Positions 9,157-28,266 of a DNA stretch of 64,000 bases are shown here, in pieces. The translations under genes and the position numbers were made by a program. The stretch's first letter is position 1; each line of letters opens with the position of its first letter. This DNA comes from an uncultured Solirubrobacteraceae bacterium (lineage in GTDB: Bacteria > Actinomycetota > Thermoleophilia > Solirubrobacterales > Solirubrobacteraceae): positions 120,375-184,374 of the forward strand of contig CAZPQW010000004.1 in NCBI GenBank assembly GCA_964588985.1. The letters are read 5' to 3'. The notes under the pieces were generated by a model, which saw nothing but the letters and a program-made list of their open reading frames with translations, searched no databases and was not told the origin of the DNA.

Positions 9157-10608
9157 GTGCAACCCCTGGAGAAGCTGCGTGCGCGCATGGCCGAGCTCTC
9201 GGACCTCGCGTCGATCGAGATGCTGCTCAGCTGGGATCAGCTGGTGATGATGCCCTCACAGGGCGGCGAGTCCAGGGGACAGCACCTCGGCACCCTCGCG
9301 CGCGTCACACACGAGCTTGCGACCGCGCAGGAGATCGGAAGCTGGCTCGAGGAGCTCGACGGCGCCGCGCTCGACGGCCTGGACGCCGATGTGGTGCGGC
9401 TGGCGCGGCGCGACTTCGAGCGCGCGCGCCGCGTTCCGGAAGATCTCGCTGTGGAGCTGGCCCGCGCGGGCACCGAGGGTCAGGAGATCTGGCAGCAGGC
9501 GCGCGCGGATGACGACTTCGGCGCGTTCGCTCCGGCGCTCGAGCGAAACGTGGAGCTTGCGCGCTCCTACGGCGAATGCGTGGCGGGCGAGGACGAGAGC
9601 GCTTACGAGGGCCTGCTCGGCGATTACGACTTCGGTCTGCGCACGGATGAGCTGCGCCGCGTGTTCGATGCGCTCGCGGTAGCGCTGCCACCGCTCGTGG
9701 AGCGCGCGAGCGCGTGCTCTCCACCTCGGAGCATCGAGGTGCCGATCAGCGCACAGCAGGCGGCCGTGACGGGCACGCTGCGTCGCCTGGGCGTGGAGAG
9801 CGACAGCTGGAGGGTGGACGTATCGACGCACCCGTTCACCGCGTGGATCGGGCGCGGAGACTCGCGCGTGACGACGCGCTACGGCGACGGCGAGGTGGAG
9901 TCGCTGCTGAGCTCGCTGCACGAGTACGGGCACGCGCTGTACGAGCGCCAGGTCGACCCGCTGCTGGACCGCACGAACCTCGGCGGCGGCACGTCGATGT
10001 CGATCCACGAGTCCCAGAGCAAGCTGTGGGAGAACCACGTCGCGCGCAACCGCGCGTTCGCCGAGGTGCTCGCGGCGGAGCTGCGCGGCGGAGGGTTCGA
10101 GGTGACGGCGGCGGAGCTGCACGCGAGCCTCGTCGGCGTCGCGCCCTCGGCGATCCGCGTGTCCGCCGACCCGCTCACATACCCGCTGCACATCGTGCTG
10201 CGCTTCGAGCTGGAGCTTGCGCTGATCGCAGGCGATCTCGCGGTCGCGGACCTGCCGGACGCGTGGCGTGAGGGGATGCGCCGTCTGCTCGGGGTGGAGG
10301 TCGCCTCGGACGCGGTTGGTTGTCTGCAGGACGTGCACTGGAGCTCGGGCAGCTTCGGCTACTTCCCCAGCTATGCGCTCGGCTGCCTGATCGCGGCGCA
10401 GCTGTGGGAGGCGATGGAGGCCGAGATCGGCCCGCGCGAGGAGGATCTGCGCCGCGGCGAGGTGGCCCCGATTCAGCGCTGGCTCGGCGAGCGGGTGCAC
10501 CGCCACGGCAGGCGCATGGACACGACGGAGCTGGTCGAGCACGCCACGGGGCGGGCGTTGGAGATCGAGCCGTTCCTGCGCTACGTGGCGCCGCTCGCCG
10601 AAGGCTGA
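9157..10608 (+). CDS. M32 carboxypeptidase (carboxypeptidase Taq family)
   Basis: HPF, HEYGH zinc motif, HESQSKLWEN, IRVSAD, QDVHW, GYFPSYALG. Confidence 0.95.
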   Translation: MQPLEKLRARMAELSDLASIEMLLSWDQLVMMPSQGGESRGQHLGTLARVTHELATAQEIGSWLEELDGAALDGLDADVVRLARRDFERARRVPEDLAVELARAGTEGQEIWQQARADDDFGAFAPALERNVELARSYGECVAGEDESAYEGLLGDYDFGLRTDELRRVFDALAVALPPLVERASACSPPRSIEVPISAQQAAVTGTLRRLGVESDSWRVDVSTHPFTAWIGRGDSRVTTRYGDGEVESLLSSLHEYGHALYERQVDPLLDRTNLGGGTSMSIHESQSKLWENHVARNRAFAEVLAAELRGGGFEVTAAELHASLVGVAPSAIRVSADPLTYPLHIVLRFELELALIAGDLAVADLPDAWREGMRRLLGVEVASDAVGCLQDVHWSSGSFGYFPSYALGCLIAAQLWEAMEAEIGPREEDLRRGEVAPIQRWLGERVHRHGRRMDTTELVEHATGRALEIEPFLRYVAPLAEG

Positions 10609-14624: not shown

Positions 14625-16445
14625 CTAGAGGTGGCCGGCGATCGGCTCGGTGGCCGCCCAGCCTTCCAGGAACTTCGCGGTGTCGGCGGCGTCGAGCGGA
14701 CGCGCGAACAGGAAGCCCTGACCGCTGTCGCAGCTCTCGCCCTGCAGCAATGTGAGCTCGTGGGCCTGCTCGATGCCCTCGGCGAGGGTCTCGATCGAGA
14801 GCGCCTTGCCGAGCTGCACGAGCGTGCGCAGGATCGTCTCGCCCTCCTCGTTGTGGGACATCTGTGCGATGAACGAGCGGTCGATCTTGAGCGCGTCGAC
14901 GGGGAAGTGCTGGAGGTGGGCCATCGAGGAGTAGCCGGTGCCGAAGTCGTCGATCGCGATGCGCACGCCCAGCTCCTTGACCGCCGCGAGGCGTGCGGCG
15001 GTGGCCACGGTGTCGTGCATGATCGCCGTCTCGGTGACCTCGATCGTGAGCGCGCCCGGTTCGAGGCCGGTCTCCTCGAGGATGCGCCGCACGTCGAGGA
15101 CGAACTCGTCGCTGTCGAGCTGCTTGGCGGAGACGTTGACGGCGATGCCGATCGGATGGCCGGCTTCGCGCCAGCGCACGCCCTGGCTGCAGGCTTCGCG
15201 CAGCACCCACCTGCCGACCGCGACGATCAGACCGGTCTCCTCGAGCAGTCCGATGAAGTTGTCCGGCTGGACGACGTCGCGGGTGGGGCTGTCCCAGCGG
15301 ATCAGCGCCTCGACGCCCGTGGGGCGCATGTCCTGCAGACTGAACGTGGGCTGGTAGACGAGGAAGAACTCGTCGTTCTCGAGCGCCATGCGCAGATCCA
15401 TCTCCAGCTCCATGCGCGTCTGCACGGCCGTCTGCATGCCGGATTCGAAGGAGACGTAGCCGTGGTGTCCGTCCCACTTGGCCTGATACATGGCGATGTC
15501 CGCGTCGCGCAGCAGATCGCCAGCGCAGGTACGGTCTCCCGAGGCGATGCCGATGCTCGCGGTGACCTTCAGCTGACTCTCGCCGGCGGCCTCGAGCTTG
15601 AACGGCTGCGCGAGCGCTTCGAGCAGACGCTCGGCGATCAGCTGCGGTCCCGAGCCGAGCGAGAGCTCGCCGGCGATCACCACGAACTCGTCGCCGCCGA
15701 GACGCCCGACCGCGTCGGACTCGCGCACGACGGCGGTGAGTCGCTGCGCGACCGCGCGCAGGAGCTCGTCTCCGGCCGCATGGCCGAAGGAGTCGTTGAC
15801 CGCCTTGAAGTTGTCGAGGTCGACGAACAGCGCCGCGAGCGGAGTGTGGTTACGGCGTGCGTGCAACATCAGCTGCTCGACTCGGTCGAGGATCAGGGTG
15901 CGGTTGGGCAGGCCGGTGAGTGCGTCGTGCGTGGCCAGGAACGCGAGCTCGTGCTGGCGGCGGGCGAGCTCCTCCTCCGTGCGCCTGCGCTCGGACTCGA
16001 AGGACTCGCACATGCGCACGAGCGTCACGTTGAGGCTGCGCTGGAGCATCGCGAGAGCCTCCGCCAGTACATGATCCTCAAGTTGCAGCGTTCTCGCGCA
16101 CTCGCGGACCACATCCGCCGCCGAGTCGCACCAGCGCAGGCAGCGCTTGGTGACCTCGTTGAGGGGAGCGGCGCGCTGGGAGGCGAGCTGGGCGAAGATC
16201 TGCCATGACTCCTGCCCGACCTCGCGGGCGGCGTCCGCGCCCTCGCCGGCCATCCAGCGGGCGACCGCGACGGTGGACACGGTTCCCACGCGAGCAAAGC
16301 GCTCCTCGACGGCGTCGTCGAGCTGACATCCCGACTGGCGGGTTCGCGTCAGCATCCCGCTGACCACGTCTTCCGTGCGAGCGTTCAGCGCGTGTCCGAG
16401 GCGATGGATGTCCTCTGTCAGCGCGTATGGCGATGTCTCTGGCAT
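14625..16445 (-). CDS. GGDEF-EAL c-di-GMP diguanylate cyclase/phosphodiesterase with helical N-terminal sensor domain
   Basis: HDALTGLPNR, RESD I-site, RLGGDEF, VEALIRW, DDFGTGYSS, QGFLFARP. Confidence 0.95.
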   Translation of the reverse strand: MPETSPYALTEDIHRLGHALNARTEDVVSGMLTRTRQSGCQLDDAVEERFARVGTVSTVAVARWMAGEGADAAREVGQESWQIFAQLASQRAAPLNEVTKRCLRWCDSAADVVRECARTLQLEDHVLAEALAMLQRSLNVTLVRMCESFESERRRTEEELARRQHELAFLATHDALTGLPNRTLILDRVEQLMLHARRNHTPLAALFVDLDNFKAVNDSFGHAAGDELLRAVAQRLTAVVRESDAVGRLGGDEFVVIAGELSLGSGPQLIAERLLEALAQPFKLEAAGESQLKVTASIGIASGDRTCAGDLLRDADIAMYQAKWDGHHGYVSFESGMQTAVQTRMELEMDLRMALENDEFFLVYQPTFSLQDMRPTGVEALIRWDSPTRDVVQPDNFIGLLEETGLIVAVGRWVLREACSQGVRWREAGHPIGIAVNVSAKQLDSDEFVLDVRRILEETGLEPGALTIEVTETAIMHDTVATAARLAAVKELGVRIAIDDFGTGYSSMAHLQHFPVDALKIDRSFIAQMSHNEEGETILRTLVQLGKALSIETLAEGIEQAHELTLLQGESCDSGQGFLFARPLDAADTAKFLEGWAATEPIAGHL

Positions 16446-16454
16446 CAATCCAGC

Positions 16455-16481
16455 GGATCGGCAGCCGGCGCTGATCCCTAA
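16455..16481 (-). promoter_or_regulatory. Putative sigma28 (FliA/WhiG)-type promoter TTAG-N15-GCCGATCC
   Basis: GCCGAT -10 with 15-nt spacing, directly upstream of the GGDEF-EAL start. Confidence 0.45.
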
Positions 16482-16523
16482 ATATGTTGACTATTCGTTA
16501 GCTAGCGTTTCTTAATCTCATCT

Positions 16524-17294
16524 CTAGGGTGGGCAGGGGGTCGATGTGCGCGCGGTCCTGTGAGTTCCGTCGGAGAACGCGAACGTGGCGGCAAATGGGA
16601 ATCCTCCCGCGGGGCAGCTCTTCGGCAGCCGAATCCCGCGAGGGTGGAACGCGATCGTCCTGCCGTTGACGCGTTCGTAGTAGGTCAGATGTTCGGGGCC
16701 GATCGTCGCGTGGAGATGGACGAGTGCGACGTCCGCGCCTTCGGGAAGGCTCGGCACGAGCGGTAGGTGGATGTCGACCTTGCCTCCAAAAGGGCTGCTG
16801 GCGCTCAGCAGGAACGCCGGCAATGCGAGCTGCGCCTGGACCGGACTGCTCCCGTCGGCGTAGAAGATCAGCGCGAAACGTCCGTGAGACACGGGCGCGC
16901 GCACGACGGTGAGCTTGGTCGTCTCGCGCACGATCGTGGGACCGACGGGGATCTCGACGGCCGCGGCCCCGCTGCCCATGATCGAGTTGGGCGGGCAGGC
17001 GCTCAGTCCACGCGCTTCGAGCGACTTCTGGACGCACGTGTCCAGGCCCAGGCCACTCAGCCCGATGCCGATGTTGTTCGGGTAGCGCAGGGCGATCCCG
17101 AGCACCGGCGACGGGGCGCGGCCGTGCGGGGCGCGGATGCGCAGGTCGAACCCGAGCGCGGTGTCGTGACCGAGTATCTCCGGGCTCAGTGTGGCCCTCA
17201 GCTGTACCGACTGTCTCGCTTGTGCCGCGGTGGGAAGGCAGGTGCAGAGGAGCATCGCGCCAAGCGCCGCGATAGCGCGAATCGTTGCCGGCAC
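16524..17294 (-). CDS. Secreted beta-rich hypothetical protein (paralog of 43150-43917)
   Basis: Signal peptide AIAALGAMLLCTCLPTAAQA; C-terminus GIRLPKSCPAGGFPFAATFAFSDG...PCPP. The upstream extension in the ORF track overlaps the next gene and was discarded. Confidence 0.8.
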   Translation of the reverse strand: MPATIRAIAALGAMLLCTCLPTAAQARQSVQLRATLSPEILGHDTALGFDLRIRAPHGRAPSPVLGIALRYPNNIGIGLSGLGLDTCVQKSLEARGLSACPPNSIMGSGAAAVEIPVGPTIVRETTKLTVVRAPVSHGRFALIFYADGSSPVQAQLALPAFLLSASSPFGGKVDIHLPLVPSLPEGADVALVHLHATIGPEHLTYYERVNGRTIAFHPRGIRLPKSCPAGGFPFAATFAFSDGTHRTARTSTPCPP

Positions 17295-17314
17295 AGCGCT
17301 CTCCGTGGACCTGT

Positions 17315-17836
17315 TCAGTAGGAGATGCTGCCGGTGGTTTGCACGGTCATGGAGTAGGTGTAGCGGTCGAGCACCCCATAGAAGCCAGCGCGTCCGTGTG
17401 CATGCCGGTAGCTGCCGGTGCCGCCGGTTGCGGTGAGCGAGCCGCCGAAGCTTTCGTAGCGACCGGATCCGTGTGGAGTGGCCGACGCGTGTCCGACGAT
17501 CGTCCCGTGAGGCGTGAAGATCGTGAACGTCGCCGTTAGCGTGGGGCCGATGTTGGCGTATACGTGCATGCCGCCAGGGATGGTTCCAGTGGCCGTGCCT
17601 TCCTCGAACAACCGCGAGCCGGAGCTCTTGCTCTGGATGCAGTGGAGCTTGGCGGAATCCCTCGCTCTCAGCGTGCGGGCCGTGGTCGCCCGGATTTGGG
17701 CGCTCGCGAGCGGATCCGGTAGGGCGGCGAGGGTGAACGCGCTCAGAGTCAGCAGACAGGCCACCGTGCGAGTCAGGGCACGGCACGTCGCTGATTTGAT
17801 GTCGATCGAGAGCTGTACCCTCATGTTCATATCCAC
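17315..17836 (-). CDS. Secreted protein with dirigent/allene-oxide-cyclase-like TGGTGxYxxAxG motif
   Basis: Signal-like TVACLLTLSAFTLAALPDPLASA; GGSLTATGGTGSYRHAHG. Confidence 0.7.
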   Translation of the reverse strand: MDMNMRVQLSIDIKSATCRALTRTVACLLTLSAFTLAALPDPLASAQIRATTARTLRARDSAKLHCIQSKSSGSRLFEEGTATGTIPGGMHVYANIGPTLTATFTIFTPHGTIVGHASATPHGSGRYESFGGSLTATGGTGSYRHAHGRAGFYGVLDRYTYSMTVQTTGSISY

Positions 17837-17884
17837 GAACGAGATGGTCGAACGATATCGCTTGTCTGGTTGCCTGTCGCGCCC

Positions 17885-18583
17885 TCATCGTCCACCGAAC
17901 CGTCGTCGGCGGGCGTTGAACTCAGCCAGCGCCTCTTCGAGATGCCCGCGGGTGAAATCTGGCCACAGCTCGTCGCTGAAGACGAGCTCCGAATACGCCG
18001 CCTGCCAGAGCAGGAAGTTCGACAGCCGCCGCTCTCCGCCCGTGCGGATGATCAGATCGGGGTCGTGCATATCGGGGGCGTAGAGGTGCCTGTGGAACTC
18101 GTCCTCGCAGTCGGTGCGCACGCCTCTGGCGGCATCGACGATCTCCGCGCGCCCGCCGTAGTTGACCGCGACGAACAGCGTGATCAAACGGTTCTTCGCC
18201 GTCAGGGCTTCGGCCCGCTCCATCACCTCCACGAGTTCGCTGGCCACGCCCTGGCGACGCCCGATGAAACGCATGCGTACGCTGTGTCGGTGCAGTTCGG
18301 GCGCCTCGCGCGCGATTCGCTTGGCGAGCACGGAGATCAGGTCCCGCACCTCCTCGACCGGCCTCGACCAGTTCTCGGTCGAGAACGAGTAGATCGTCAG
18401 CTGCTCGATCCCCAGCTCGACCGCGTCGCGCAGTCGTGCCTTGAGCGTATCCGCGCCCGCGTCGTGACCGTCCTTGATCGACAGGCGCCGCGCCCGTGCC
18501 CAGCGGCCGTTGCCGTCGGTGATGATCGCGACGTATCTCGCCGTACCGAACGGTGCATGCTCGGCGGTGGCGGTGGGGCTCAT
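17885..18583 (-). CDS. uppS: Cis-prenyltransferase (UppS-family polyprenyl diphosphate synthase)
   Basis: AIITDGNGRWA, YSFSTENWSRP, NYGGRAEI, PDLIIRTGGERRLSNFLLWQAAYSE, RRFGG; ATGA overlap with the upstream gene. Confidence 0.95.
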   Translation of the reverse strand: MSPTATAEHAPFGTARYVAIITDGNGRWARARRLSIKDGHDAGADTLKARLRDAVELGIEQLTIYSFSTENWSRPVEEVRDLISVLAKRIAREAPELHRHSVRMRFIGRRQGVASELVEVMERAEALTAKNRLITLFVAVNYGGRAEIVDAARGVRTDCEDEFHRHLYAPDMHDPDLIIRTGGERRLSNFLLWQAAYSELVFSDELWPDFTRGHLEEALAEFNARRRRFGGR

Positions 18584-19806
18584 GCCGCGCCACCCACCGA
18601 CTCCGGGATCTGAGATCCGTGGCGCGTGCGAACACGCTTCATCGCGCGCCACGTGTGCATCACCGCGAGCGTTGGTCCGATCAACGGCCGCAGACGGCGC
18701 GTGACGTGCTCGGTGACCGGTAGCGCGAACTCGTTCTTGGCGGTCGGGGCGGAGGTGTAGTAGGCGACCACGCCCACGAGGGTCATGACGTGATGGGCTC
18801 CGTGGGGAGCGCGCCGAGCATGGCCGACGGCGTCGTCGATGACACTCACGAGTCGTCCTGCGAGCACGTCGCGATCGTCGTAGTACTGCACGTACCCGGG
18901 CTGCCCCGCGTTGAGATCGCGCTCGTAGTCGATCAAGCTGTCGAGGATCGTTGGGAGCACGGAGATCGACAGGTAGATCCTGTCGATCTCGAGCGCCTGC
19001 TCGTAGGTGGTGCGCGCATCTGCGGCGGCCGCGATGAGCGCGTGCACGGCGAGCACCGAGCACGCGGCGCCGGCGAGGAACTCGCGCCACTGCAGCGGTG
19101 TTCCAACCGCGTTGAGCTTTGCCCAGCGTTCCAGCTGGCCGGGGCCCGACAGCGTGGCGGCATGAATGCGCAACTGCGCTTCCGCACCACGCTCCGCGCT
19201 TCGCTGCAGGATGTCGGTGAACCTGGTGGTCGAGGGTAGCCTCGCGAGGGCTGCTCGTACGGTGGCGACCAGCTCGTCGAGATAACCGCCGTCCTCGGAG
19301 TGGGGGTGGTAGCGGTAGTAGTCGCCGATCGGCGCGAGCATCGGCGTGACCGCGTCGGTGAAGGCGGCGAACAGGCGATAGCCGTCGTCGGGCGATTCGT
19401 GCGACGGCGACTCGGTCAGGCCATCCAGGTAGTCGTAGAGGACCTCCAGCGCGACGATCGCGGTGACGGTGTCGCCGCGGTGGGATCGCGGCACGAGCGT
19501 CGCGAGCATCGCCGCGACCTCCGCGTTGAAGCCCTCCTCGGCCAGCTTCTGCGAAGCGAGCGCGCGCAGGGTCGGATCGCGGATCTCCTCGGCGCGGCTG
19601 CGCCAGCGGCTCAACTGCTGGGCGACCGGCCGCGCAACGCTCGACCAGTAGCGCACGTTCGCGACCAGCAGCGCGCGGCCGGCTTGGGCGGCAAGGCGGC
19701 CGTCCATTACGGCGGTCGTCCCTTCGATATGGCGAACGCTGCTGAGCTGCTGAGGCGTGTGGGGGCGCCGCGGCGGTGGTGCTACGAGGGTCGGCGGCCT
19801 ACTCAT
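18580..19806 (-). CDS. YtpB/DUF2600-like (tetraprenyl-beta-curcumene synthase family, class IB) terpene synthase
   Basis: QQLSRWRSRAEEIRDPTLRALA N-terminus, DYLDGLTE and LDSLIDYERD Asp-rich motifs, DGGYLDELV, WREFLAGAACS; start may be later (MDGRL). Confidence 0.8.
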   Translation of the reverse strand: MSRPPTLVAPPPRRPHTPQQLSSVRHIEGTTAVMDGRLAAQAGRALLVANVRYWSSVARPVAQQLSRWRSRAEEIRDPTLRALASQKLAEEGFNAEVAAMLATLVPRSHRGDTVTAIVALEVLYDYLDGLTESPSHESPDDGYRLFAAFTDAVTPMLAPIGDYYRYHPHSEDGGYLDELVATVRAALARLPSTTRFTDILQRSAERGAEAQLRIHAATLSGPGQLERWAKLNAVGTPLQWREFLAGAACSVLAVHALIAAAADARTTYEQALEIDRIYLSISVLPTILDSLIDYERDLNAGQPGYVQYYDDRDVLAGRLVSVIDDAVGHARRAPHGAHHVMTLVGVVAYYTSAPTAKNEFALPVTEHVTRRLRPLIGPTLAVMHTWRAMKRVRTRHGSQIPESVGGAA

Positions 19807-22381
19807 CGAGGGCTAGCGTGGGGGAGGTGCGCGAAGCCCACCAGCCTGGAATGGCGACGAAGGCCATGACGACCACGATCACCAGCGCGATGATCTCGAG
19901 GGGACGCAGGCTCCCGGCGAGGTTCGCCACGGGGAAGCCCGTCACATGCTTGAGGTAGCTGTCGATGATGATCTGACCGTAGATACCCGCCACAGCGCCC
20001 GTGACGCACCCTGCGCTCAGCATCAGCGTGGCTTCCGTGAGCAGGATGCGCCGCAGACGAGAGGGGCGCACTCCCGCGAGGCGCAGCCCGGCGAGCGATG
20101 CCCGTCGCTGCCAGATGCTGGATCCCAGGGCCGAGGCCATCGCCAGCATCGCGGCCGCGATCAGCAGCGTGGATATCTCGCCGAGGCGGCTGAGCCCTTC
20201 GCTTGTGAGATGGTCGATCCGCTGCTCGCGGGTGTGCGAGGAGGACACTTCCAGCCCGCTCGTCGGGCCGAGCAGGTGAGCGATCTCGGCGCGGATCCGC
20301 TCGAGGTCAGCGCCTGGAGTCAGCTTCACGCCGAGCGCGGTCGGAGCTGTGCTGGACCAGTAGCGACGGTAGTCCGAGCTGCCGATGAAGATCGCGCCGG
20401 GACTCCAGGCTAGGTTGGTCGTGGTCGCTGCCAGTCGGAAGGGGATGTCTCCCATTGGCGTTGGAAGGGAGAGCGATTCCCCGATACCGACGTGGTGTTC
20501 GTCTGCGATTTGCTTTGACAGCACGATCCAGCCAGTTTCTCCCAGACGCTTGACGGAGTCGGCTGCGCTGCCTTCGACGACTTGACTCGTGAGGACGTGT
20601 CTGTTCGACCCGGCCGGTCGCGCGATCATCCACACACGCCTGTTGCCCAGTGCCAGGAATCCCCCCTGATATTCGTTGACACTCATGACACCGGGTATCC
20701 GCGCAACGCGCGTCGAATAGTGATCGGACATGAACGTGATGGTTGCCTGGTTGTCACCTGGGTTGCTGATCCACAGATCTGCATCGACGGAATAACTGTG
20801 TGCGAAGCCGGCGATTCCACGGAGCAGATCGTCTCGCGAGCCCCCCAGTGCGATGCTGCCGAAGATAGCGACGGCACCGGTCGCTGCAAGCGCAAGCGAG
20901 CGCAGCGTGGCGGCTCTCAACGACGCGAGCGAGATCTGGAGAACGGTGAGCCGCTGAACGCGCTCGGTCAGAGCCGTGCCGGCACGCAGCACTCCCGCGA
21001 AGACCAGCGGAACCACGAGCACCGTCGCCATCGCCAGCACCCCGCTGGCGACGAAGCCGAGCGACGGGCTCAGCGCGAACAGCACGGTCGAGAGCGCCAC
21101 CAGGGCGATCGAGCCGAGCCCCAGCCACAGCTGGGTCCTGCCGCCCGTCGCGTTACCCGGCGCGCCGTCCTCGAAGTACACAGCGTCCAACGCTCGCCCC
21201 TGGCGCAGGTCGAGCAACGGCACCGCCGAGGCGAGGAACGTGGCGAGGGTGCCGCCGAGCAGCGAGAGCAACAGCGGCTCGAGGCGAACCACGGTGCTCG
21301 TACCCAGCGTGAAGGCCTCCGCGAGGTAGCTGGAGGATTGATGGAAGACGCCCAGCGAGAGCAGGTAGCCGGCGAGCAGGCCGATCGAGGAGGCGGCGAG
21401 GCCGAGGCACAGCGCCTGGAAGGCCACGATCTGCATGATCGCCGCGCGCTTGGTGCCGATCAGCCGCAGATCGGCTATCGCCTGGCGTCGCTCGGGTACG
21501 GTCAGGAGCATCGCGTTGAAAGCGAACAGGAAGCCGAGCAGCACGCTGATGGCGGCGAAGAAGCCGCTCACCTGATCGCTCGGGCCGAGCGCCTGGTGCA
21601 GTTGCGCCACTTCCGCATCGGCAGCGCCCACGGTCAGACGCCCCTGGCCGAGTTTTTTCAGCTCATCGTTCACCAGCGCCTTCTTCCCCGGTTCGGTCTT
21701 GACGAGGATGCGCGTGAGCCGTTCCGGCAGGCCGGCGAGTTGCTGGAGTCGGTTGAGCGGCAGTACCGCCACACGCGCCTGCGCGAGTGCTCCGGCGGCT
21801 TCGTGTCCGAGCACCGCGGCGACTTTCATGTGGTGCGCTTCGCCACGCAACTGCAGCAGGATGTTGCTGTCCAGGTTGGATGGTCCGATACCCAGTTCCC
21901 CGGCGCTCGTCTTGCTCAGCCCGACCGCTCCGGGCGTGAACGCCGCGAGCGGGATCGTGTGGGCCAGGCCGTTGAGCATCGCGAGGCTGACTTCGGTGCC
22001 GGCCAGCTCCACGGTCGCGTGGCGGTCGTGAGGCCCGACGATCGTCGCGGTGAGTTCGAGCAGAGGGGCGGCCTGCTCGACGCCGCGAAGGTGCTCCACG
22101 CGCTTCAGCAGTTGACCGTCGAGACCATCGGGGTCGCGTGCGCGCAGCTCGAGGTTCGCGGGTCCGACGACCGCGTGTACGACTTCTCCGGCCGAGCCGG
22201 CGATGCTGCCGTTGGCGATCAGCACGGCGAACACGAGCGCGACCGCGATCGCCACCCCGAGGCCGGCGAGCAGCTCCTGCACGCGGTGGACGCGCAGGCG
22301 ACTGCGGTAGAGATACACGAGCGCGTATGGCCGAACCAGGGTTCTCGCCTGGAGCGGTTCGGGGCGCCTGGATGGGCTCAC
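19799..22381 (-). CDS. FtsX/MacB-type (type VII) ABC transporter permease, duplicated architecture
   Basis: 860 aa; two extracytoplasmic domains, each followed by ERRQAIADLRLIG or QRRASLAGLRLAG coupling motifs. Confidence 0.9.
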   Translation of the reverse strand: MSPSRRPEPLQARTLVRPYALVYLYRSRLRVHRVQELLAGLGVAIAVALVFAVLIANGSIAGSAGEVVHAVVGPANLELRARDPDGLDGQLLKRVEHLRGVEQAAPLLELTATIVGPHDRHATVELAGTEVSLAMLNGLAHTIPLAAFTPGAVGLSKTSAGELGIGPSNLDSNILLQLRGEAHHMKVAAVLGHEAAGALAQARVAVLPLNRLQQLAGLPERLTRILVKTEPGKKALVNDELKKLGQGRLTVGAADAEVAQLHQALGPSDQVSGFFAAISVLLGFLFAFNAMLLTVPERRQAIADLRLIGTKRAAIMQIVAFQALCLGLAASSIGLLAGYLLSLGVFHQSSSYLAEAFTLGTSTVVRLEPLLLSLLGGTLATFLASAVPLLDLRQGRALDAVYFEDGAPGNATGGRTQLWLGLGSIALVALSTVLFALSPSLGFVASGVLAMATVLVVPLVFAGVLRAGTALTERVQRLTVLQISLASLRAATLRSLALAATGAVAIFGSIALGGSRDDLLRGIAGFAHSYSVDADLWISNPGDNQATITFMSDHYSTRVARIPGVMSVNEYQGGFLALGNRRVWMIARPAGSNRHVLTSQVVEGSAADSVKRLGETGWIVLSKQIADEHHVGIGESLSLPTPMGDIPFRLAATTTNLAWSPGAIFIGSSDYRRYWSSTAPTALGVKLTPGADLERIRAEIAHLLGPTSGLEVSSSHTREQRIDHLTSEGLSRLGEISTLLIAAAMLAMASALGSSIWQRRASLAGLRLAGVRPSRLRRILLTEATLMLSAGCVTGAVAGIYGQIIIDSYLKHVTGFPVANLAGSLRPLEIIALVIVVVMAFVAIPGWWASRTSPTLALDE

Positions 22382-23109
22382 GCTGGCGCAGCCGGAGCGC
22401 GAGGATCGAGCGTGAGTCGAACTCGCTCCTCGCTGAGGCTATGGCCCTCCGTGAACCTGCCGTCGCGTAGCGAACAGTGCCTGTCAGCGAGCAGCGCGGC
22501 CTCCGTGTCGTGGGTGACCAGGAGCACCGCGGCGCCTCGCTCGTGCGCGATCGAGCGCAGCAGCCCGACGATCTCCTTGCTCCGAGCGCTGTCGAGGTTT
22601 CCGGTCGGCTCGTCGGCGAGGATCAGCTTGGGTTCGCCGGCGAGCGCGCGGGCAATCGCGATGCGCTGACGCTCGCCGCCGGAGAGCTCGTGAGGCTTGT
22701 GGTGGAGACGATCGCCGAGCCCGACCCGCTCCAGCCACGGGCGCGCGAGCGCCTGCGCGTCACGGGCGCCCACACCGCCGAGCAGGAGCTTGATCGAGGT
22801 GTTCTCGATCGCCGACACGCGCGGCATCAGATGGAAGTTCTGGTAGATGAAGCCGACGTCCTTGAGGAGGTAGTCGCTCGCCTCTCTCTCGTTCAACGAG
22901 GACAGGTCGCGGCCACCGAAGCGAATCGTGCCGTGGTCCGGTTGCAGCAGTGCGGCGATCAGCAGCAGGATGGTGGTCTTGCCGGAGCCCGACGGTCCCA
23001 GCAGGGCGACGATCTCGCCCGCGTCGACGGTGAGGCTCACGCCGTTGACCGCGTTCACCTCCTCGCCCGCCCCGCGGTAGCGCTTGACCACTTCTTCCAG
23101 CTCGAGCAT
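22378..23109 (-). CDS. ABC transporter ATP-binding protein (LolD/MacB-like), intact motifs
   Basis: GPSGSGKT, LSGGERQR, ILADEPTGNLD, VTHD. Confidence 0.95.
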   Translation of the reverse strand: MLELEEVVKRYRGAGEEVNAVNGVSLTVDAGEIVALLGPSGSGKTTILLLIAALLQPDHGTIRFGGRDLSSLNEREASDYLLKDVGFIYQNFHLMPRVSAIENTSIKLLLGGVGARDAQALARPWLERVGLGDRLHHKPHELSGGERQRIAIARALAGEPKLILADEPTGNLDSARSKEIVGLLRSIAHERGAAVLLVTHDTEAALLADRHCSLRDGRFTEGHSLSEERVRLTLDPRAPAAPA

Positions 23110-23170
23110 GCTCGAAGCTACCCCGCTGCGACTGCTTGGTATCTACACCCGCGCAGGCGCGACGCGCGCA

Positions 23171-23875
23171 TCACGCCGAGCGACGTCGCAGGGGCAGCAC
23201 CGGCGCCAGCTCGCGTGTGGGTCTCCCGTGCAGTTCGCCATCGCTGAGCGTCAGCGCGCGAGCGCCGGAGAGGCCCGTCGACTCGCCGGTGCTCGTGAGG
23301 ACCGCCATGCCCTCCCCCGTGAGGGAGCGCAGCAGCAGCAGGATCGCGTCTCGCGCTAGCAGGTCCACGCCGATCGTGGGCTCGTCGACGAGCAACAGCT
23401 TCGGCTGCAGCGCGATCGCTCGCGCGATCGCCACGCGCACCGCTTCGCCGCCGTCGAGCTCCGTGGGCTTGAGCTTCGCGCAGCTGCCCGCGTCCGCCCG
23501 CTCGAGCGCTTCCCAGGCGCGATTGGTGGCCGTCGATGGCGCGACGCCTCGCGCCAGCTGGCCCACGACGAGATGGTCGAGCACGACCCTACCCTCGTTC
23601 GGGTGAAACGTCTTGCGGCAGTAGCCGATGCTCTCGCCGAGCAGCTCGCAGTGCCGCGCCGACAGATCGCGTCCTCCCAGACGCACGACGCCGCTGTCCG
23701 GAGTCTCCACGCCAGCGGCGATGCGCAGCAGGGTGGAGCGGCCGGAGCGTCGGCGACCCCATATGGCCACCATTTCGCCCGCTTCGACCTCGAGCGATGC
23801 GTCGTGAAGGACCACGTGCTCGTTCAAACCTCGCCCGTAGCGCTTGCTGATGTGCTCGAGCTCGAGCAGGCTCAT
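23171..23875 (-). CDS. ABC ATP-binding protein with degenerate motifs
   Basis: Walker A GRRRSGRST, signature LDGGE, LLVDEP, no H-loop His (TSTGES). Confidence 0.85.
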   Translation of the reverse strand: MSLLELEHISKRYGRGLNEHVVLHDASLEVEAGEMVAIWGRRRSGRSTLLRIAAGVETPDSGVVRLGGRDLSARHCELLGESIGYCRKTFHPNEGRVVLDHLVVGQLARGVAPSTATNRAWEALERADAGSCAKLKPTELDGGEAVRVAIARAIALQPKLLLVDEPTIGVDLLARDAILLLLRSLTGEGMAVLTSTGESTGLSGARALTLSDGELHGRPTRELAPVLPLRRRSA

Positions 23876-24483
23876 CGCGGGGCGTCCCTTCCGTCGGCCA
23901 GCGCTTTGAACTCGCGTCTGGCGTATTCGACCCATGGCAGCTTCGCTTCCATAGCAAGGCGACTCTCCTCGGAGATCAGTCGCGCCGCGAGCCCGGACCC
24001 GGGGTCCCCTGGATGGGGGGCGGGCGTGGGGATCGCGGCCTGGCTGGCCTCTTCCAGGCAGGCCACGCCGTAGCGCTCGATCACCTCGAGAGCCATCTCC
24101 GGTTCGTGGGCGAACACAGCCAACTGGCGCGCGAACAGTCTCGAGCGACGGAAGTCTTCCTGGATCTGCTCGGTGAGACGCTCCTTGTAGCTGTCCACCC
24201 CGTCGGTGGTCGCTCGGTATCGGGGCTTGGGCTGGCGTCCCGAGCGGGTTCCCGGTATCTCGGCGATCAATCCCCTCCGCTGCAGCGTGTCCAGGGCCGT
24301 GTAGACATACGAGACGCCGCTCAGGTGGAGCATCCCCGCGTACGCTGTTTCGAATCTCTGCGCGAGCTCGTAGCCGTAGCTGGGCCGCTCGATCACGAGT
24401 CCGAGCAGCGCCCACTGAACGGCCGACTGCATCGGCCCGGAGCTCTTCTTGGCCCGTGTCTGGACTGCTGTTTGATCTTCCAT
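23872..24483 (-). CDS. PadR-family transcriptional regulator
   Basis: ALLGLVIERPSYGYELAQRF...VYTALDTLQRRGLI...RYRATTDG. Confidence 0.9.
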   Translation of the reverse strand: MEDQTAVQTRAKKSSGPMQSAVQWALLGLVIERPSYGYELAQRFETAYAGMLHLSGVSYVYTALDTLQRRGLIAEIPGTRSGRQPKPRYRATTDGVDSYKERLTEQIQEDFRRSRLFARQLAVFAHEPEMALEVIERYGVACLEEASQAAIPTPAPHPGDPGSGLAARLISEESRLAMEAKLPWVEYARREFKALADGRDAPR

Positions 24484-24577
24484 TTAACGGTACAGGTTAC
24501 TTGGCGAGCAAACGGTCAGCAAAGCGATGTTTCTAACTGTTGTTCCCATATTCCGCGCACTATCCGCAGACAGTCAC

Positions 24578-24590
24578 AATGTAGAACATT
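24578..24590. promoter_or_regulatory. Inverted repeat AATGT-AGA-ACATT in the divergent padR/HTH promoter region (candidate operator)
   Basis: Perfect 5-bp arms in an AT-rich intergenic region; related ATGTTTCTA at 24527. Confidence 0.35.
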
Positions 24591-24640
24591 CAAAGGCGTG
24601 TCTTATCAAGAGTGCCGGTGCGCTGCATCATTCGGTTCCC

Positions 24641-25135
24641 ATGAACACCGATGCAGACATAGGTCAACGGCTTCCGCGCCTAGAGAACGGCTCGCGTCTG
24701 CGCCATCTCAACGGAGGAGCGAACGCCTTGGCAAATGGAGCGCATGCGATTGAGGCCGGCCGAGAGGCCGTGCTGGTGACCGGCGCGGACTCAGAGAAGA
24801 TCGTGATCGAGCTCTCGCCGGCTCAGGTCGACCGCGTCGTGCGCGGCGCGGCCGAGAGCGGCAACATGTCCGTCCTGCTGTCGGGTCTGGACGACGTTCG
24901 CGAGGTGCTCGCGCGCGAGCCGCGCCAGTTGGAGGACTCTCGCCTGTCGCGCTCGCTGCTCGCGGGACTGTTGATGCTCGCCTCGTTTCCCACGGACGGG
25001 AGCTATCTAGGGAACGCCGAAATCGCCCGGATGCTCGACATGAACCCCAGCACGACCCATCGCTACGTCTCCACTCTCGTGGCGGTGGGGCTGCTGGAGC
25101 GCGATCCGGCGACTCGCCGGTACCGACTCGTTTGA
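24641..25135 (+). CDS. Regulator with C-terminal IclR-type HTH and no IclR effector domain
   Basis: SRSLLAGLLMLASF...LGNAEIARMLDMNPSTTHRYVSTLVAVGLLERDPATRRYRL at the C-terminus. Confidence 0.8.
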   Translation: MNTDADIGQRLPRLENGSRLRHLNGGANALANGAHAIEAGREAVLVTGADSEKIVIELSPAQVDRVVRGAAESGNMSVLLSGLDDVREVLAREPRQLEDSRLSRSLLAGLLMLASFPTDGSYLGNAEIARMLDMNPSTTHRYVSTLVAVGLLERDPATRRYRLV

Positions 25136-25159: not shown

Positions 25160-26122
25160 TCACGCCCCTCCGTAGGAGGCCGGCGCGGGAGGATCTTCGC
25201 GGATGCCGGCCAGCAGCCCCAGCAATTGCCGCCCACTGGTACCGCCGAGGACCCGCAGGCGATGCAGTCGGTAGGGATCGTCGTGAGGGTGCGCCCAGCC
25301 GGGGACTACGGTCGTGGACCCCGTATAGCCCGCCGCGCGGACCTCGGCCACGACGGCCGCGTTGTAGTGGCCTGACGGGTAGCAGAACCAGTTGACCGGG
25401 ACGCCATAGCGCTGCTGGACGACGCGTCGCGCGACGGCCACCTGATACCGAAGCTGCTTGGGGTCGAGCGCGATCAGATCCGCGTGGCTGAAGCCCTGCG
25501 TGTCGAGCTCCCAGCCGGCCTTCACGAGACCGCGTATCTCCTCCTGTCCGAGCCCGCCCTGCGAGGGCGGTAGGCCGGTCAGCTGGATGTTCTCGTCGCC
25601 CACCCAGCCGAGCCGCTGCAGGACGGGGAGCGCCTGGGTGTACTGCGACTGGTAGCCGTTGTCGAAGCTGATCACGATCGGCTTGCCCGGGCCGATCGAG
25701 ACGCCCCGACGCCAGTGGGCCTCCACCTGGTCGAGCGTGACCGCGTGCCAGCCAGTGTCCTCGAGCGCCTGCATCTGCTCGGCGAACTGTTGTGGTTCGA
25801 CGTACAGGCCGGGAAACGGCGCGCCCGCGGGAGGCGCGGCGATGACGTGGTACATGAGGATCGGCACCGGGGTCGTGCCGGGAGGACCTACGACCGTCTG
25901 CGTGGTGCTCGGCGATTGCTTGGTGGCGGGCCGGCTGGAGTGGGCCGTGGTTGCGCCCCGCGGATGGTTGTTCGCGGGGGAGCCTCCGGAGCTGGAGGCG
26001 ATGGCTATCGCGGCGGCCGCGCCGAGGAGCAGGGCCGCTGTCAGTACGGTTGCCGTGCGCCGACGCCGGCGGATCTCCCGCCGGCGCTGCTCACGACGGG
26101 TGCGAAGGGCGTGTGAGTCCAT
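25160..26122 (-). CDS. Polysaccharide deacetylase (NodB/IcaB-like), membrane-anchored, atypical metal ligands
   Basis: VPILMYH, ISFDNG, DTQGFSH, FCYPSG. Confidence 0.88.
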   Translation of the reverse strand: MDSHALRTRREQRRREIRRRRRTATVLTAALLLGAAAAIAIASSSGGSPANNHPRGATTAHSSRPATKQSPSTTQTVVGPPGTTPVPILMYHVIAAPPAGAPFPGLYVEPQQFAEQMQALEDTGWHAVTLDQVEAHWRRGVSIGPGKPIVISFDNGYQSQYTQALPVLQRLGWVGDENIQLTGLPPSQGGLGQEEIRGLVKAGWELDTQGFSHADLIALDPKQLRYQVAVARRVVQQRYGVPVNWFCYPSGHYNAAVVAEVRAAGYTGSTTVVPGWAHPHDDPYRLHRLRVLGGTSGRQLLGLLAGIREDPPAPASYGGA

Positions 26123-26205
26123 ACCGTGTGTGGAGGCCGCGACGATCGAGCAGCCGGCGCATCGGGAGGGGAGCATAGTCGCTCGCAAAACGGGAATCAG
26201 CCTTA

Positions 26206-26224
26206 GATAAGACGTAGTCTCATC
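26206..26224. promoter_or_regulatory. Imperfect palindrome GATAAGAC-GTA-GTCTCATC upstream of the metal SBP gene (candidate metalloregulator operator)
   Basis: 7 of 8 bp arms pair; AT-rich; 20 nt upstream of the ATG. Confidence 0.45.
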
Positions 26225-26244
26225 ATTTGTTAGCCTTTCGTGCC

Positions 26245-27186
26245 ATGGGAAAGCGCGCCATCCCGCTTGTCTGGCTGCTGGTGGCAGCCGGGCTCGCGCT
26301 CGTAATCGCCGGATGCGATCGCTCGGGTCTCGCGCCGGTCGACTCCACACCTGCGTCTGCTGGAGGGCCACGCTTCGAGGTGGTGGCGGCGGAGAATTTC
26401 TGGGGGAGCCTCGCCGCGCAGCTGGCCGGCTCCAGGGCGGAGGTTCACAGCGTCATCGTCAACCCCGGCACCGACCCGCACAGCTACCAGCCGACCGCAC
26501 AGGATGCGCGTAGGTTCGCGGGCGCGAACGTGGCGATCGTCAACGGCGTCGGCTACGACGAATGGGCAACGCAGCTGCTGGACGCAAGCTCTGCCAGCGG
26601 ACGCGTGGTACTGAACGTCGGCCGTCTGCTCGGATTGAGCGAAGGCGCAAACCCGCACCGGTGGTACTTCCCCCACGACGTAGCAGGGGTGATCGACTCG
26701 ATCGTGGCCGACTACGACCGCCTGGATCCGTCGGACACGGGGTACTTCGCACAGCGCAAGCAGATGCTGCTGAGTACCGGGCTGGCGCGCTACGAGCAGC
26801 TGCTGCGTGAGATCCGCGCGCGCTACGCGGGCGTGCCGGTCGGCTACAGCGAGAGCATCTTCCAGGGATTGGGTGAATACCTCGACCTGAAGCTCGCAAC
26901 CCCCTACAGCTTCGCCAAGGCGATCGCGGAGGGCACCGACGTGACCGCCCGGGACAAGCAGGCAGTCGACGCCCAGGTTCAGGGCCGCAAGATCGCAGTG
27001 TGGGTTTTCAACACCCAGAACGTGACCCCGGACGTGCAGCGCGTGAACCAGATCGCGCGCGAAGAGCACATCCCGATCGCGACGATCACCGAGACGCTCA
27101 CACCCGCGTCGGCGAGCTTCCAGCAGTGGCAGGTCGAGCAGCTAGAAGGGTTGGCGCGGGCGCTACACGAAGCCACCGGTCGGTAG
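26245..27186 (+). CDS. Zn/Mn ABC transporter substrate-binding lipoprotein (ZnuA/MntA family), orphan
   Basis: Lipobox IAGC, VVAAENFWGS, DPHSYQP, NPHRWY. Confidence 0.9.
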   Translation: MGKRAIPLVWLLVAAGLALVIAGCDRSGLAPVDSTPASAGGPRFEVVAAENFWGSLAAQLAGSRAEVHSVIVNPGTDPHSYQPTAQDARRFAGANVAIVNGVGYDEWATQLLDASSASGRVVLNVGRLLGLSEGANPHRWYFPHDVAGVIDSIVADYDRLDPSDTGYFAQRKQMLLSTGLARYEQLLREIRARYAGVPVGYSESIFQGLGEYLDLKLATPYSFAKAIAEGTDVTARDKQAVDAQVQGRKIAVWVFNTQNVTPDVQRVNQIAREEHIPIATITETLTPASASFQQWQVEQLEGLARALHEATGR

Positions 27187-27288: not shown

Positions 27289-28266
27289 TCAGTCGCCGCT
27301 GAGGTTCGGCGGCAGCGGCTGGCGGGGGGTGGGGGGATCGTCGGCGAGCAATTGGGGGACAGTCACGAGGCGAAGCCCTCGCGCGCGGATCCCGCGGATG
27401 ATCTCCGGCAGTGCCGCGATCGTCTGCGTGCGCACGCCACCCGCGTCGTGCATCAGGAGAATCGCGCCCGGCTGCGCGCCCGCGAGCGCGCGCTGCACGA
27501 TCGTTTCGACGCCCGGCTGCAGGTAGTCGTCGGTGTCGACCGACCACAGAACCATCAGCAGGCGCAGGTGGTGCAGCTCGCGCATGGTGGTTGTGTCGAA
27601 GGAGCCGTAGGGGGGGCGGAACAGGTCCGGCCGCTGCCCGCCGAGCAGTTCGACGCGCAGGATCTGTTCGAAGAGCTCTTCGTACTGGTCGTGGGCTGAC
27701 AGCTTTGCCAGCTCGGGGTGGCTCTCGGTGTGGTCGCCGATCGCGTCCCCGTCTTCGATCTCGCGCACGGTGGATGCGCTGAAGTAGCGCAGCATCTTGC
27801 CGATCACGAAGAACGTCGCGGGGGCGTGGAAGCGCTCCAGCACGCTCAGCACCTGCGGCGTGTAGGGACCCGGTCCGTCGTCGAAGGTCAACGCGACATC
27901 GCGCACGCGCGCGCTTCCCTGTTTGACGAACGGGGTGTACGCGAGGATCGATTTGATGGCCTGTTTGCCGTCCACCTGGCTGTCGCTCGGAGGTTTCGTG
28001 CGCGCCCGACGTGTGCTGGAGCTCTTGGTCGACGCGGAGGCGCCCGGGTGGTGAGACCCCGGCAGAGCGGCGACGAGCGCGATCACGGCCAACACGAGGA
28101 CGAGCACGAGCGCGGCGACCGCACGGCGGCGGCGGATGCGAATGACCTCCGGAGGGTGGGGGCGCGGCTGGGGGGAGGGTGCGCTGGGAGCGGCGGGCTC
28201 AGACGCTGACGCGCGCGCCCGGGCGGCCCTCTGCTCCTCGAAGTCCCAGTTCCAGTCGCGGCCCAT
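27289..28266 (-). CDS. Polysaccharide (peptidoglycan GlcNAc) deacetylase, membrane-anchored
   Basis: Canonical LTFDDGP, HTESH, RPPYG, LMHD. Confidence 0.92.
   Translation of the reverse strand: MGRDWNWDFEEQRAARARASASEPAAPSAPSPQPRPHPPEVIRIRRRRAVAALVLVLVLAVIALVAALPGSHHPGASASTKSSSTRRARTKPPSDSQVDGKQAIKSILAYTPFVKQGSARVRDVALTFDDGPGPYTPQVLSVLERFHAPATFFVIGKMLRYFSASTVREIEDGDAIGDHTESHPELAKLSAHDQYEELFEQILRVELLGGQRPDLFRPPYGSFDTTTMRELHHLRLLMVLWSVDTDDYLQPGVETIVQRALAGAQPGAILLMHDAGGVRTQTIAALPEIIRGIRARGLRLVTVPQLLADDPPTPRQPLPPNLSGD

Follow-up and report, generated by a model that had tools for sequence, protein, structure and literature searches.

A candidate terpenoid synthesis-and-export cassette combining a class IB terpene synthase, a cis-prenyltransferase paralog and a type VII ABC transporter in an uncultured Solirubrobacteraceae bacterium

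The class IB terpene synthases known so far are a handful of Bacillus enzymes that act on all-trans C25-C35 diphosphates. In the available text of two papers the Bacillus enzymes are described as drawing on all-trans heptaprenyl diphosphate (PMC7839719; PMC5939612). The available part of the second gives the published motifs, each of which has three aspartates, as DYLDNLxD and DY(F,L,W)IDxxED, reports that all six motif aspartates of BalTS (Bacillus alcalophilus) are essential and bind the diphosphate through Mg2+ and that its fold is class I-like, and in its conclusions names the role of class IB synthases outside Firmicutes as an open target (PMC5939612). Here we analyse a 64,000-nucleotide (nt) stretch of DNA from an uncultured Solirubrobacteraceae bacterium (contig CAZPQW010000004.1; hereafter the window), in which positions 14625..25135 encode a synthase of this class, defined by the family DUF2600 (PF10776). 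Like YtpB, the tetraprenyl-beta-curcumene synthase of B. subtilis, and BalTS, it belongs to PF10776 and has the two aligned acidic motifs; unlike them, it stands in an operon with a cis-prenyltransferase of the UppS family and an ATP-binding cassette (ABC) transporter of type VII, and has many paralogs per genome.

Other described systems also bear on the comparison. Tomato UppS-family enzymes (zFPS, NDPS1 and CPT2) each give a Z-configured diphosphate to a dedicated terpene synthase (TPS); in these plant trichome pairs the prenyltransferases are short-chain C10-C20 enzymes and the synthases canonical class I TPS, whereas the cis-prenyltransferase of the window resembles the medium- and long-chain bacterial undecaprenyl diphosphate synthases (UPPS) and its synthase is class IB. 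Mycobacterial heptaprenylcycline, going by the title of a 2008 paper, is reportedly a cyclic C35 terpene formed from a Z-type C35 polyprenyl diphosphate, which would be a chemical precedent in the Actinomycetota for cyclising a Z-type long prenyl diphosphate; we know of no cyclase gene assigned to it. Bacterial gene clusters for terpenoids typically combine a terpene synthase, a gene for precursor supply and a cytochrome P450. Mechanotransmission ABC transporters of type VII (MacB, LolCDE, FtsEX and BceAB) have FtsX and MacB_PCD domains and a separate ABC ATPase in common, features which the window shares. Among them BceAB has a permease of 10 transmembrane (TM) segments in a 4+2+4 layout, a single large outer domain between TM7 and TM8, and the cognate two-component system BceRS. 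Finally, barrels of the dirigent/allene oxide cyclase (AOC) type bind hydrophobic small molecules, and several of them guide cyclisations.

The window holds nine minus-strand genes which, in order of transcription, encode PadR, ATPaseB, ATPaseA, the permease, DUF2600, UppS, Sec1, Sec2 and a GGDEF-EAL protein. All nine had been placed here by an earlier sequence-only reading of the same DNA, in which the presence of a second, degenerate ATPase gene went unnoticed. Coordinates are positions in the window; gene calls came partly from a caller based on GC content at third codon positions (GC3), which missed some genes.

24527/24728..25135, plus strand: small regulator with an IclR-type helix-turn-helix (HTH) domain only (Pfam HTH_IclR, 44 bits), divergent from padR; the tenth gene
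24484..24727, no strand: AT-richer intergenic stretch from which the HTH gene and padR diverge, holding the palindrome AATGT-N3-ACATT
23872..24483, minus strand: PadR-family regulator (PF03551, 42.8 bits), first gene of the operon
23171..23875, minus strand: ATPaseB, degenerate ABC nucleotide-binding protein (ABC_tran, 86.8 bits)
22378..23109, minus strand: ATPaseA, canonical ABC ATPase closest to LolD (ABC_tran, 125.2 bits)
19799..22381, minus strand: fused tandem FtsX permease of 860 amino acids (aa), with FtsX in 2 stretches and MacB_PCD in 2 stretches
18580..19806, minus strand: DUF2600/class IB terpene synthase (PF10776, cut-off 25 bits)
17885..18583, minus strand: second UppS, a cis-prenyltransferase paralog (PF01255)
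17315..17836, minus strand: Sec1, a secreted protein whose N terminus is a hydrophobic signal; no match in NCBIfam, nor in Pfam at E<=0.01
16524..~17294, minus strand: Sec2, secreted and beta-rich by its translation
14625..16448, minus strand: GGDEF-EAL protein (GGDEF 148.9 bits, EAL 235.4 bits)

The region is coding with a GC content of ~66-70%. The start/stop overlaps which had been claimed at four junctions can each be read directly in the sequence: padR and ATPaseB share ATGA at 23875-23872, ATPaseA and the permease share GTGA at 22381-22378, and the synthase and uppS share ATGA at 18583-18580, an arrangement by which UppS appears to be translationally coupled to the synthase. At the fourth junction the permease stop TAG (19801-19799) lies inside the 5' end of the synthase gene if ATG 19806 is used, an overlap of 8 nt; another ATG is found at 19707. 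The other intergenic gaps in the operon are 48-75 nt. A scan for promoters and terminators gave nothing above shuffled sequence, and no minus-strand terminator-like site stood out.

We read the operon in the window, with somewhat more belief than doubt, as one member, from the UppS-linked lineage, of a lineage-specific, multi-copy family of regulated cassettes for terpenoid synthesis and export in an uncultured genus of the Solirubrobacterales. The synthase is the first part of this case. That it is a class IB enzyme had been proposed from its motifs, and the family profile agrees: PF10776 is matched with 198.6 bits in the Pfam scan of the window and 199 bits in the genome search. Against the BalTS structure 5yo8_A the protein aligns over residues 57-355 (E 1.1e-27, 100.4 bits), with about a quarter to a third of residues matching, judged by eye from the alignment. 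Both of the proposed motifs are present, DYLDGLTE aligning to DYLDNLCD of BalTS and DSLIDYERD to DYFIDQEED, so the acidic motif positions comprise five Asp and one Glu. In motif 1 two Asp are retained and the third acidic residue is Glu rather than Asp; in motif 2 Asp 1, 5 and 9 are retained, with Tyr2 replaced by Ser and Glu8 by Arg. The Glu of motif 1 is the norm of the subfamily (123 of 129 aligned rows, these being 128 full-length proteins from the best 150 family representatives, and the window protein), and each of the six acidic positions is kept in 122-127 of the same rows. Among 34 paralogs from three genomes, 31 carry the pattern D-[YF]-x-D-x-x-x-E with D-x-x-x-D-x-x-x-D, the three exceptions being one Glu, one Asn and one pseudogene. 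Because this pattern is so widely kept, the DUF2600 proteins look catalytically competent, yet they form a distinct sequence subfamily. At E<=1e-3 the window protein is matched by 1082 DUF2600 clusters (50% identity) among 1.84 billion representatives, and 321 of these ~1082 match at E<=1e-30; a sizeable share of known DUF2600 diversity may therefore belong to this type of cassette.

The second part is the cis-prenyltransferase. As the sequence-only reading had it, this uppS lies outside the housekeeping context: it matches the Prenyltransf family PF01255 with 249.5 bits, and the genome has a separate housekeeping uppS in the order rpsB-tsf-pyrH-frr-uppS-cdsA...dxr-rseP (G000:C3; G and L numbers are our handles for genomes and loci, and C numbers for contigs). 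Since the frr-uppS-cdsA context belongs to that other copy, the window gene is the paralog. It passes the equivalog TIGR00055 (229.3 bits against a cut-off of 109.55) and retains D26, H43, S71, N74, W75 and R77 together with the RTGGExRxSNFLLWQ block in the alignment to E. coli UPPS (1jp3). The residue numbering is that of the E. coli enzyme, checked against the alignment. Ten of 11 aligned paralogs have the same catalytic residues, L022 being a pseudogene. The best match in the PDB is 1jp3 itself (194 bits), with weaker scores against the short-chain Rv1086 (111 bits) and plant enzymes (136-141 bits), the PDB entries of plant trichome cis-prenyltransferases being weaker homologues. By these comparisons the paralog is closest to medium-chain UPPS and not to short-chain enzymes. 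It is 66.4% identical to the housekeeping UppS of the genome, and at the chain-length positions A69 and L137 of E. coli both copies have Ser and Ile. Small consistent differences separate paralog from housekeeping enzyme (GLIxMLA versus GLMxMFS in helix alpha-3; RTGGE versus RTSGE), and at the A143 position the window UppS has Val versus Phe.

In a tree, nine of ten UppS paralogs form one clade nested among the housekeeping enzymes of the order; the paralog therefore originated within the lineage, by a recent duplication of its own housekeeping UppS. Monophyly of 39 UppS paralogs is not rejected (approximately unbiased test, p-AU 0.775). The earlier proposal had made UppS a dedicated cis-prenyltransferase for the synthase; its conserved linkage to the synthase, described below, stands, while a distinct Z-substrate is reduced to a possibility because the paralog is 66% identical to the housekeeping enzyme and has the same chain-length residues. 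We also observed that the housekeeping locus has two paralogous genes for TIG/IPT-domain proteins of ~520 aa between cdsA and dxr (L008:11270-14537).

The linkage of UppS to DUF2600 was followed in two sets of loci. Among 24 relatives in the genus, every extra full-length uppS adjoins DUF2600 (9 other genomes, 11 loci, one degraded), and the unit HTH/PadR-ATPaseB-ATPaseA-permease-DUF2600-UppS-Sec1-Sec2 recurs in 10 loci, one of which has the order permease-UppS-DUF2600 and one of which is heavily frameshifted. The second set comprises the best 80 of 353 relatives of the window synthase lineage in species-representative genomes (~74 metagenome-assembled genomes, MAGs, titled Solirubrobacteraceae, 47, or Solirubrobacterales, 33). 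These 80 loci were found with an 8-row alignment of sequences near the window and, because the query alignment was limited to close rows, they are biased to the window's lineage and silent on other phyla; at least 4 of them are the same contigs as loci of the first set, so that the two sets are not independent. UppS adjoins the synthase in 62 of the 80. PadR, ATPaseB, ATPaseA and permease all lie upstream of the synthase in 74, with PadR upstream in 75 and the permease ahead of DUF2600 in 77. Forty-two loci have Sec1, 43 have Sec2 and 35 have both together with UppS. A homologue of the HTH_IclR protein lies divergently upstream of PadR in 54, scoring 200-242 bits in 21 of the 23 loci of the nearest subclade (L057-L079) and 144 bits in L076. 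By hand count, ~63 of 151 genus genomes of at least 85% completeness have two or more full-length uppS genes, a figure that includes G442, flagged as unpublished.

A synthase tree was built from 72 rows (every second of the 80 loci and 32 paralogs), of which we disregard L093, L103 and L113, which sit on a branch of 3.8 changes per site and are probably mis-extracted open reading frames. All 38 other UppS-linked rows fall in one DUF2600 clade of 47 rows (SH-aLRT support 99), in which the nine rows without UppS are nested, and the other cassette lineages in the tree are without UppS. The pattern is consistent with UppS having been acquired once and then lost several times. The conservation of the linkage predicted from the window alone is thus borne out, both in the adjacency and in the single clade. 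Within the UppS clade, L133:9968-13130 and L105:10034-13144 are compact DUF2600-UppS-P450 operons in which transporter and PadR are absent; all three genes of L133 overlap by 4 nt, L105 has a DUF2600/UppS overlap of 38 nt, and both operons lie among housekeeping genes (uvrB, coaE and rpsA; glyoxalase and SCO1).

The 3.4-Mb genome itself has five DUF2600 genes, all of which follow PadR-ATPaseB-ATPaseA-permease (permease 840-870 aa). The window copy is the only one with UppS; the other four cassettes, all in G000 and without UppS, are at the following places.

L009:4693-11104: DUF2600 cassette
L010:9453-15202: DUF2600 cassette, in which the small HTH_IclR gene found near the other four of the five was not detected
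L011:4799-11161: DUF2600 cassette
L012:8893-15865: DUF2600 cassette whose synthase gene is followed by a homologue of Sec1

The synthases of these four share 34-36% identity with that of the window. In 20 DUF2600 loci of two well-assembled relatives, G002 and G009, 17 have the permease and ATPases directly upstream in the canonical order, the exceptions being L028, with another gene order, and L030 and L034, without a transporter. Most cassettes in relatives, like the other four of this genome, lack UppS; the conserved core of the family is the transporter with DUF2600, not UppS with DUF2600. A P450 gene (PF00067) lies directly 3' of DUF2600 in six of these 20 loci, all of one cassette lineage (L023, L024, L025, L033, L035 at 3561-4760 and L038 at 8563-9840; 148-159 bits in the two scanned), and many cassettes have a full-length IclR regulator with its ligand-binding domain. 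Within the genus, 18 of 24 other genomes carry DUF2600, some with as many as 15-17 matches, fragments included. It was found in none of 16 genomes from five other families of the order and, at E<=1e-10, in none of 400 other genomes sampled from the phylum, a sample that includes 8 genomes of the same family but other genera; among 14 controls, B. subtilis is the sole genome with it. Because of its absence from the 400 sampled genomes, heptaprenylcycline is likely made by an enzyme other than DUF2600.

Signs of cassette turnover were also observed (L022 at G011:C13, L025:8673-9539, L036:2436-3068, L033:7523-9565, L014 and L016). They include a frameshifted UppS-type cassette, an integrase (rve) of insertion-sequence type between permease and ATPase, one split DUF2600, a group II intron reverse transcriptase beside a cassette, and single frameshifts that may be assembly errors.

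The transporter is the third part. By a crude hydropathy method the permease has ~10 TM segments in a 4+2+4 layout and two large outer domains resembling MacB_PCD; FtsX is matched with 68.5 bits and MacB_PCD with 52.1 bits, each in 2 stretches. For ATPaseA the top NCBIfam match is LolD with 221.9 bits, under the cut-off of 307.75, and the permease scores 53 bits against LolCE, under a cut-off of 362.45. PDB matches of the permease are weak (LolF, E 6e-4; MacB, E 1.3e-3), and the same comparison gave no sequence match to a BceB structure. The features of the type VII superfamily are present, and the equivalog cut-offs of LolD and LolCE are both missed. Compared with LolCDE, the two permease halves of the window are fused with a 2-TM linker and one of its two ATPases is degenerate. 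Moreover, the host is an actinobacterium, presumed monoderm, and Sec1 has a predicted dirigent/AOC fold, not the LolA fold, although a secreted barrel protein encoded alongside is formally like the soluble acceptor LolA. Compared with BceAB, the ~10 TM segments are similar, but there are two large outer domains rather than one, and PadR and IclR-type regulators in place of a two-component system.

ATPaseB has the Walker A sequence GRRRSGRS, with Arg for Lys, the signature LDGGE and no H-loop His. These changes recur in its relatives: 66 of 73 have Arg for the Walker A Lys, and 66 of 67 have no H-loop His, while relatives of ATPaseA keep the Walker A Lys in 72 of 75 and the H-loop His in 72 of 72. 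So conserved a degeneration implies, as far as motifs can tell, an asymmetric ATPase pair, which to our knowledge is unusual among FtsX-type systems. In five genomes of sister genera and families the nearest permease homologues are 22-27% identical; for this reason the transporter is as lineage-specific as the synthase.

The secreted proteins complete the cassette. Mature Sec1 was modelled with AlphaFold2 from a 15-row alignment (predicted local distance difference test, pLDDT, 82.6; predicted TM-score, pTM, 0.73), giving eight strands, and the model was aligned with 48,161 PDB representatives. It resembles the DUF3224 proteins 2q03 (Z 12.2) and 2ooj (Z 10.4), the dirigent proteins 5lal (AtDIR6, Z 11.5) and 8th2 (Z 11.3) and the allene oxide cyclase 1z8k (Z 10.1), and also matches the beta-barrel Diels-Alderases and cyclases 7x80, 8of7, 7dvi and 7dvk; such small-molecule barrels rank ahead of outer-membrane barrels. 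Taken with the pericyclases (PloI4, Cyc15, AbnU and PyrI4), the dirigent, AOC and DUF3224 proteins share the predicted fold of Sec1 with Z of 10-12 over 104-120 of 128 residues. Sec1 is therefore predicted to be an 8-stranded barrel of the dirigent/AOC/DUF3224 type, a fold which alone shows no function. It differs from those barrels in being secreted, paired with Sec2 and without a sequence-level Pfam match (no PF03018, PF18678 or PF11528 at E<=0.01); its Atlas matches (0.81-0.87) are feature-based leads. Searched with a Sec1 profile, all five genus genomes with DUF2600 yield 3-11 copies and all five without it (completeness 71-92%) yield none, these genomes being relatives and not independent samples. 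Other cassette lineages, too, have Sec1-Sec2 pairs upstream in divergent orientation. For Sec2, ATG 17255 gives a protein starting MLLCTC..., and initiation near 17294 would provide a complete signal peptide. Neither Pfam nor NCBIfam gave a match, the AlphaFold2 model (pLDDT 55.7) is unusable, and the Atlas lead, CARDB at 0.82, is unconfirmed. Of the secreted barrels proposed earlier, Sec1 has a barrel by prediction, and for Sec2 the model is too poor for a fold to be given.

Gene content, conservation, motifs, the origin of the paralog and the predicted Sec1 fold are what the sequences show; what follows on substrate and product, on which way the lipid is moved, on what Sec1 and Sec2 do and on regulation is inferred, as is the signalling raised by the earlier reading. 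The UppS paralog would make a dedicated (2Z)-polyprenyl diphosphate of medium or long chain and so spare the carrier pool of the cell wall. The class IB synthase would hold the diphosphate by way of Mg2+ at its two acidic motifs and, by ionising it, give a linear or monocyclic large terpene. By established terpene chemistry, a 2Z substrate could allow a curcumene-type ring closure without prior isomerisation, since the C2-C3 bond would already be Z, a step that all-trans substrates need. The type VII transporter, in which an active ATPase is paired with a degenerate one and the fused permease has two extracytoplasmic domains, would extract or expel the lipid at the membrane's outer face, where Sec1 and its partner Sec2 may bind or further process it. 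PadR and the small IclR-type HTH protein would control the divergent promoters. In sister cassettes a P450 stands in place of UppS, or neither is present.

Several observations weigh against this reading. The known work of type VII ABC transporters is at the outer face of the membrane, and they are not known to export cytoplasmic products. The synthase motifs depart from the published ones in the Glu for the last Asp of motif 1 and in the Ser and Arg of motif 2, and the paralog may simply make ordinary undecaprenyl diphosphate. UppS is missing from 18 of the 80 loci, within the same clade, and from four of the five cassettes of the genome, and for this reason the synthase cannot in general depend on the paralog. 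PadR with an ABC transporter in many paralogous copies resembles a resistance repertoire. All of the genomes are MAGs, with several loci frameshifted. Finally, ytpB of B. subtilis, the single DUF2600 gene studied, is described as stress-induced and as interacting genetically with bacitracin resistance in the available part of a preprint (bioRxiv 10.1101/2024.01.17.576085).

The last two biological points lead to the alternative that survives best, which we nevertheless hold to be unlikely: a module for envelope stress or antibiotic resistance, in which the FtsX-type ABC transporter would protect lipid-carrier intermediates in the manner of BceAB, DUF2600 would dispose of polyprenyl diphosphate that is in surplus or bound by an antibiotic by destroying the diphosphate head, UppS would refill the carrier pool, and the PadR-controlled paralogs would form a repertoire against different compounds. 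It would account for the PadR regulators and the expansion to as many as 17 matches per genome, for a UppS paralog that looks like an ordinary medium-chain enzyme, and for a permease of ~10 TM in the 4+2+4 layout of BceB. It also draws on Bacillus, where, in the available text, ytpB lies in a sigma-M, bacitracin-induced operon (bioRxiv 10.1101/2024.01.17.576085; also PMC5939612) and its loss sensitises cells through a build-up of heptaprenyl diphosphate that competes at the FtsX-type BceAB (bioRxiv 10.1101/2024.01.17.576085). However, the P450 after DUF2600 in six of 20 loci and the DUF2600-UppS-P450 operons are hallmarks of biosynthesis and would have no role in such a module. These operons, which have no transporter, and the P450 genes beside DUF2600 favour biosynthesis over resistance. 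The module would also leave aside a secreted dirigent-type barrel that co-distributes with the cassettes, the loci examined have neither a BceRS-type two-component system nor an undecaprenyl diphosphate phosphatase, and the permease differs from BceB in its two outer domains and lack of a structure match.

We give little credence to a second alternative, that UppS and DUF2600 are neighbours by descent, the paralog being a spare carrier-lipid synthase and the synthase using all-trans heptaprenyl diphosphate. The close resemblance of the paralog to the housekeeping UppS would suit it, as would the loss of UppS from 9 nested members of the clade, and two trans-polyprenyl synthases and a squalene-hopene-cyclase homologue in the genome could serve a Bacillus-like sesquarterpene route. 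It is hard to reconcile with the ATGA overlap of synthase and uppS, with an adjacency kept in 62 of 80 loci across ~74 MAGs, through a swap of gene order (L016 and L101) and in operons that have lost the transporter, and with the finding of no extra full-length uppS elsewhere in the 24 relatives. A third, that DUF2600 is a prenyl-transferring enzyme on a class I fold which joins the polyprenyl chain to a small molecule, peptide or lipid as acceptor, the conjugate being handled by the ABC transporter and secreted proteins, is quite improbable: class I-type folds have been repurposed in this way (a paper on an algal N-prenyltransferase mentions class IB), the motifs differ from the Bacillus type and so close a link to an exporter is easier to reconcile with an amphiphilic product than with a hydrocarbon, but the cassettes have no conserved candidate for an acceptor-forming gene, the six metal-binding acidic positions are kept as in characterised synthases, and P450 tailoring usually partners true terpene synthases.

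Returning to synthesis and export of a terpenoid, the enzyme families are known, and what appears new is the combination of a class IB synthase, a type VII ABC transporter, UppS or P450 and dirigent-type barrels in many copies. The cassette was not described in the literature searched (class IB, DUF2600, cis-prenyltransferase/terpene and Solirubrobacterales terpenes), a search with subscription papers and supplements outside it. The combination points to an undescribed family of exported terpene lipids in the genus. The cis-prenyltransferase and class IB pair, a three-gene set with P450 in some relatives, could yield large terpenoids derived from Z substrates, and the locus would link terpene synthesis genetically to a type VII transporter and a secreted dirigent-type barrel. 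DUF2600 is strikingly expanded in one abundant lineage of soil and rhizosphere, and its cassettes may account for some of the surface chemistry or chemical ecology of this common, uncultured group of soil bacteria. A bolder version, possible if rather doubtful, is a surface-terpene-lipid machine of more than 10 copies per genome in some species, in which the class IB synthase would act on cis-polyprenyl diphosphates of up to C50-C55, a BceB/LolCE-like ABC transporter with its degenerate ATPase would pull the product from the membrane and the dirigent-like barrel would receive or cyclise it. If true, such substrates would lie far beyond any known for a terpene synthase and be the first of Z-type, a Lol-like terpenoid relay would exist in a presumed monoderm actinobacterium, and each paralogous cassette would stand for a different exported lipid.

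Evidence on regulation is confined to the divergent region and the genes beside it. The likely start of the HTH_IclR gene by GC3 is 24728, and its product lacks the IclR_C ligand domain. The palindrome AATGT-N3-ACATT (~24578-24592), upstream of padR, is a weak signal, common only to the closest loci L058-L061; its 5-nt half-sites were tallied in 4 of 76 related loci, and another palindrome, TCCAAA-N1-TTTGGA, occurs upstream of padR in 8 of the 76. No inverted repeats of at least 8 nt were found in the region upstream of padR.

The GGDEF-EAL protein at the 3' end of the operon has both signatures (LGGDEF and EALIRW), and the sequence-only reading had tentatively coupled the cassette through it to cyclic di-GMP. 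Its conservation is no evidence for that coupling. Of the 80 loci, 16 have an orthologue further downstream on the same strand, with 621-1192 bits in 14 of them, 405 bits in L062 and 368 bits in L105; almost all belong to the near subclade of the window, where an unrelated upstream gene, the nearer of two for polysaccharide deacetylases, is likewise kept beside the cassette (21 of 80). In five of the 16 the gene directly follows UppS, with Sec1 and Sec2 missing, and more distant UppS cassettes are without it. With its orthologue kept in only 16 of 80 loci, GGDEF-EAL was dropped as a member of the unit; it is probably local synteny and not part of what is conserved, although a link specific to the subclade is conceivable.

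Elsewhere in the genome, and none of them near DUF2600, are a gene of the squalene-hopene-cyclase family (438.7 bits) and two for trans-polyprenyl synthases (G000:C6:122851-123819; G000:C13:36918-37583; G000:C9:103766-104446). Upstream of the cassette in the window, the two polysaccharide deacetylase genes (25160-26371 and 27289-28266) flank a ZnuA-like gene.

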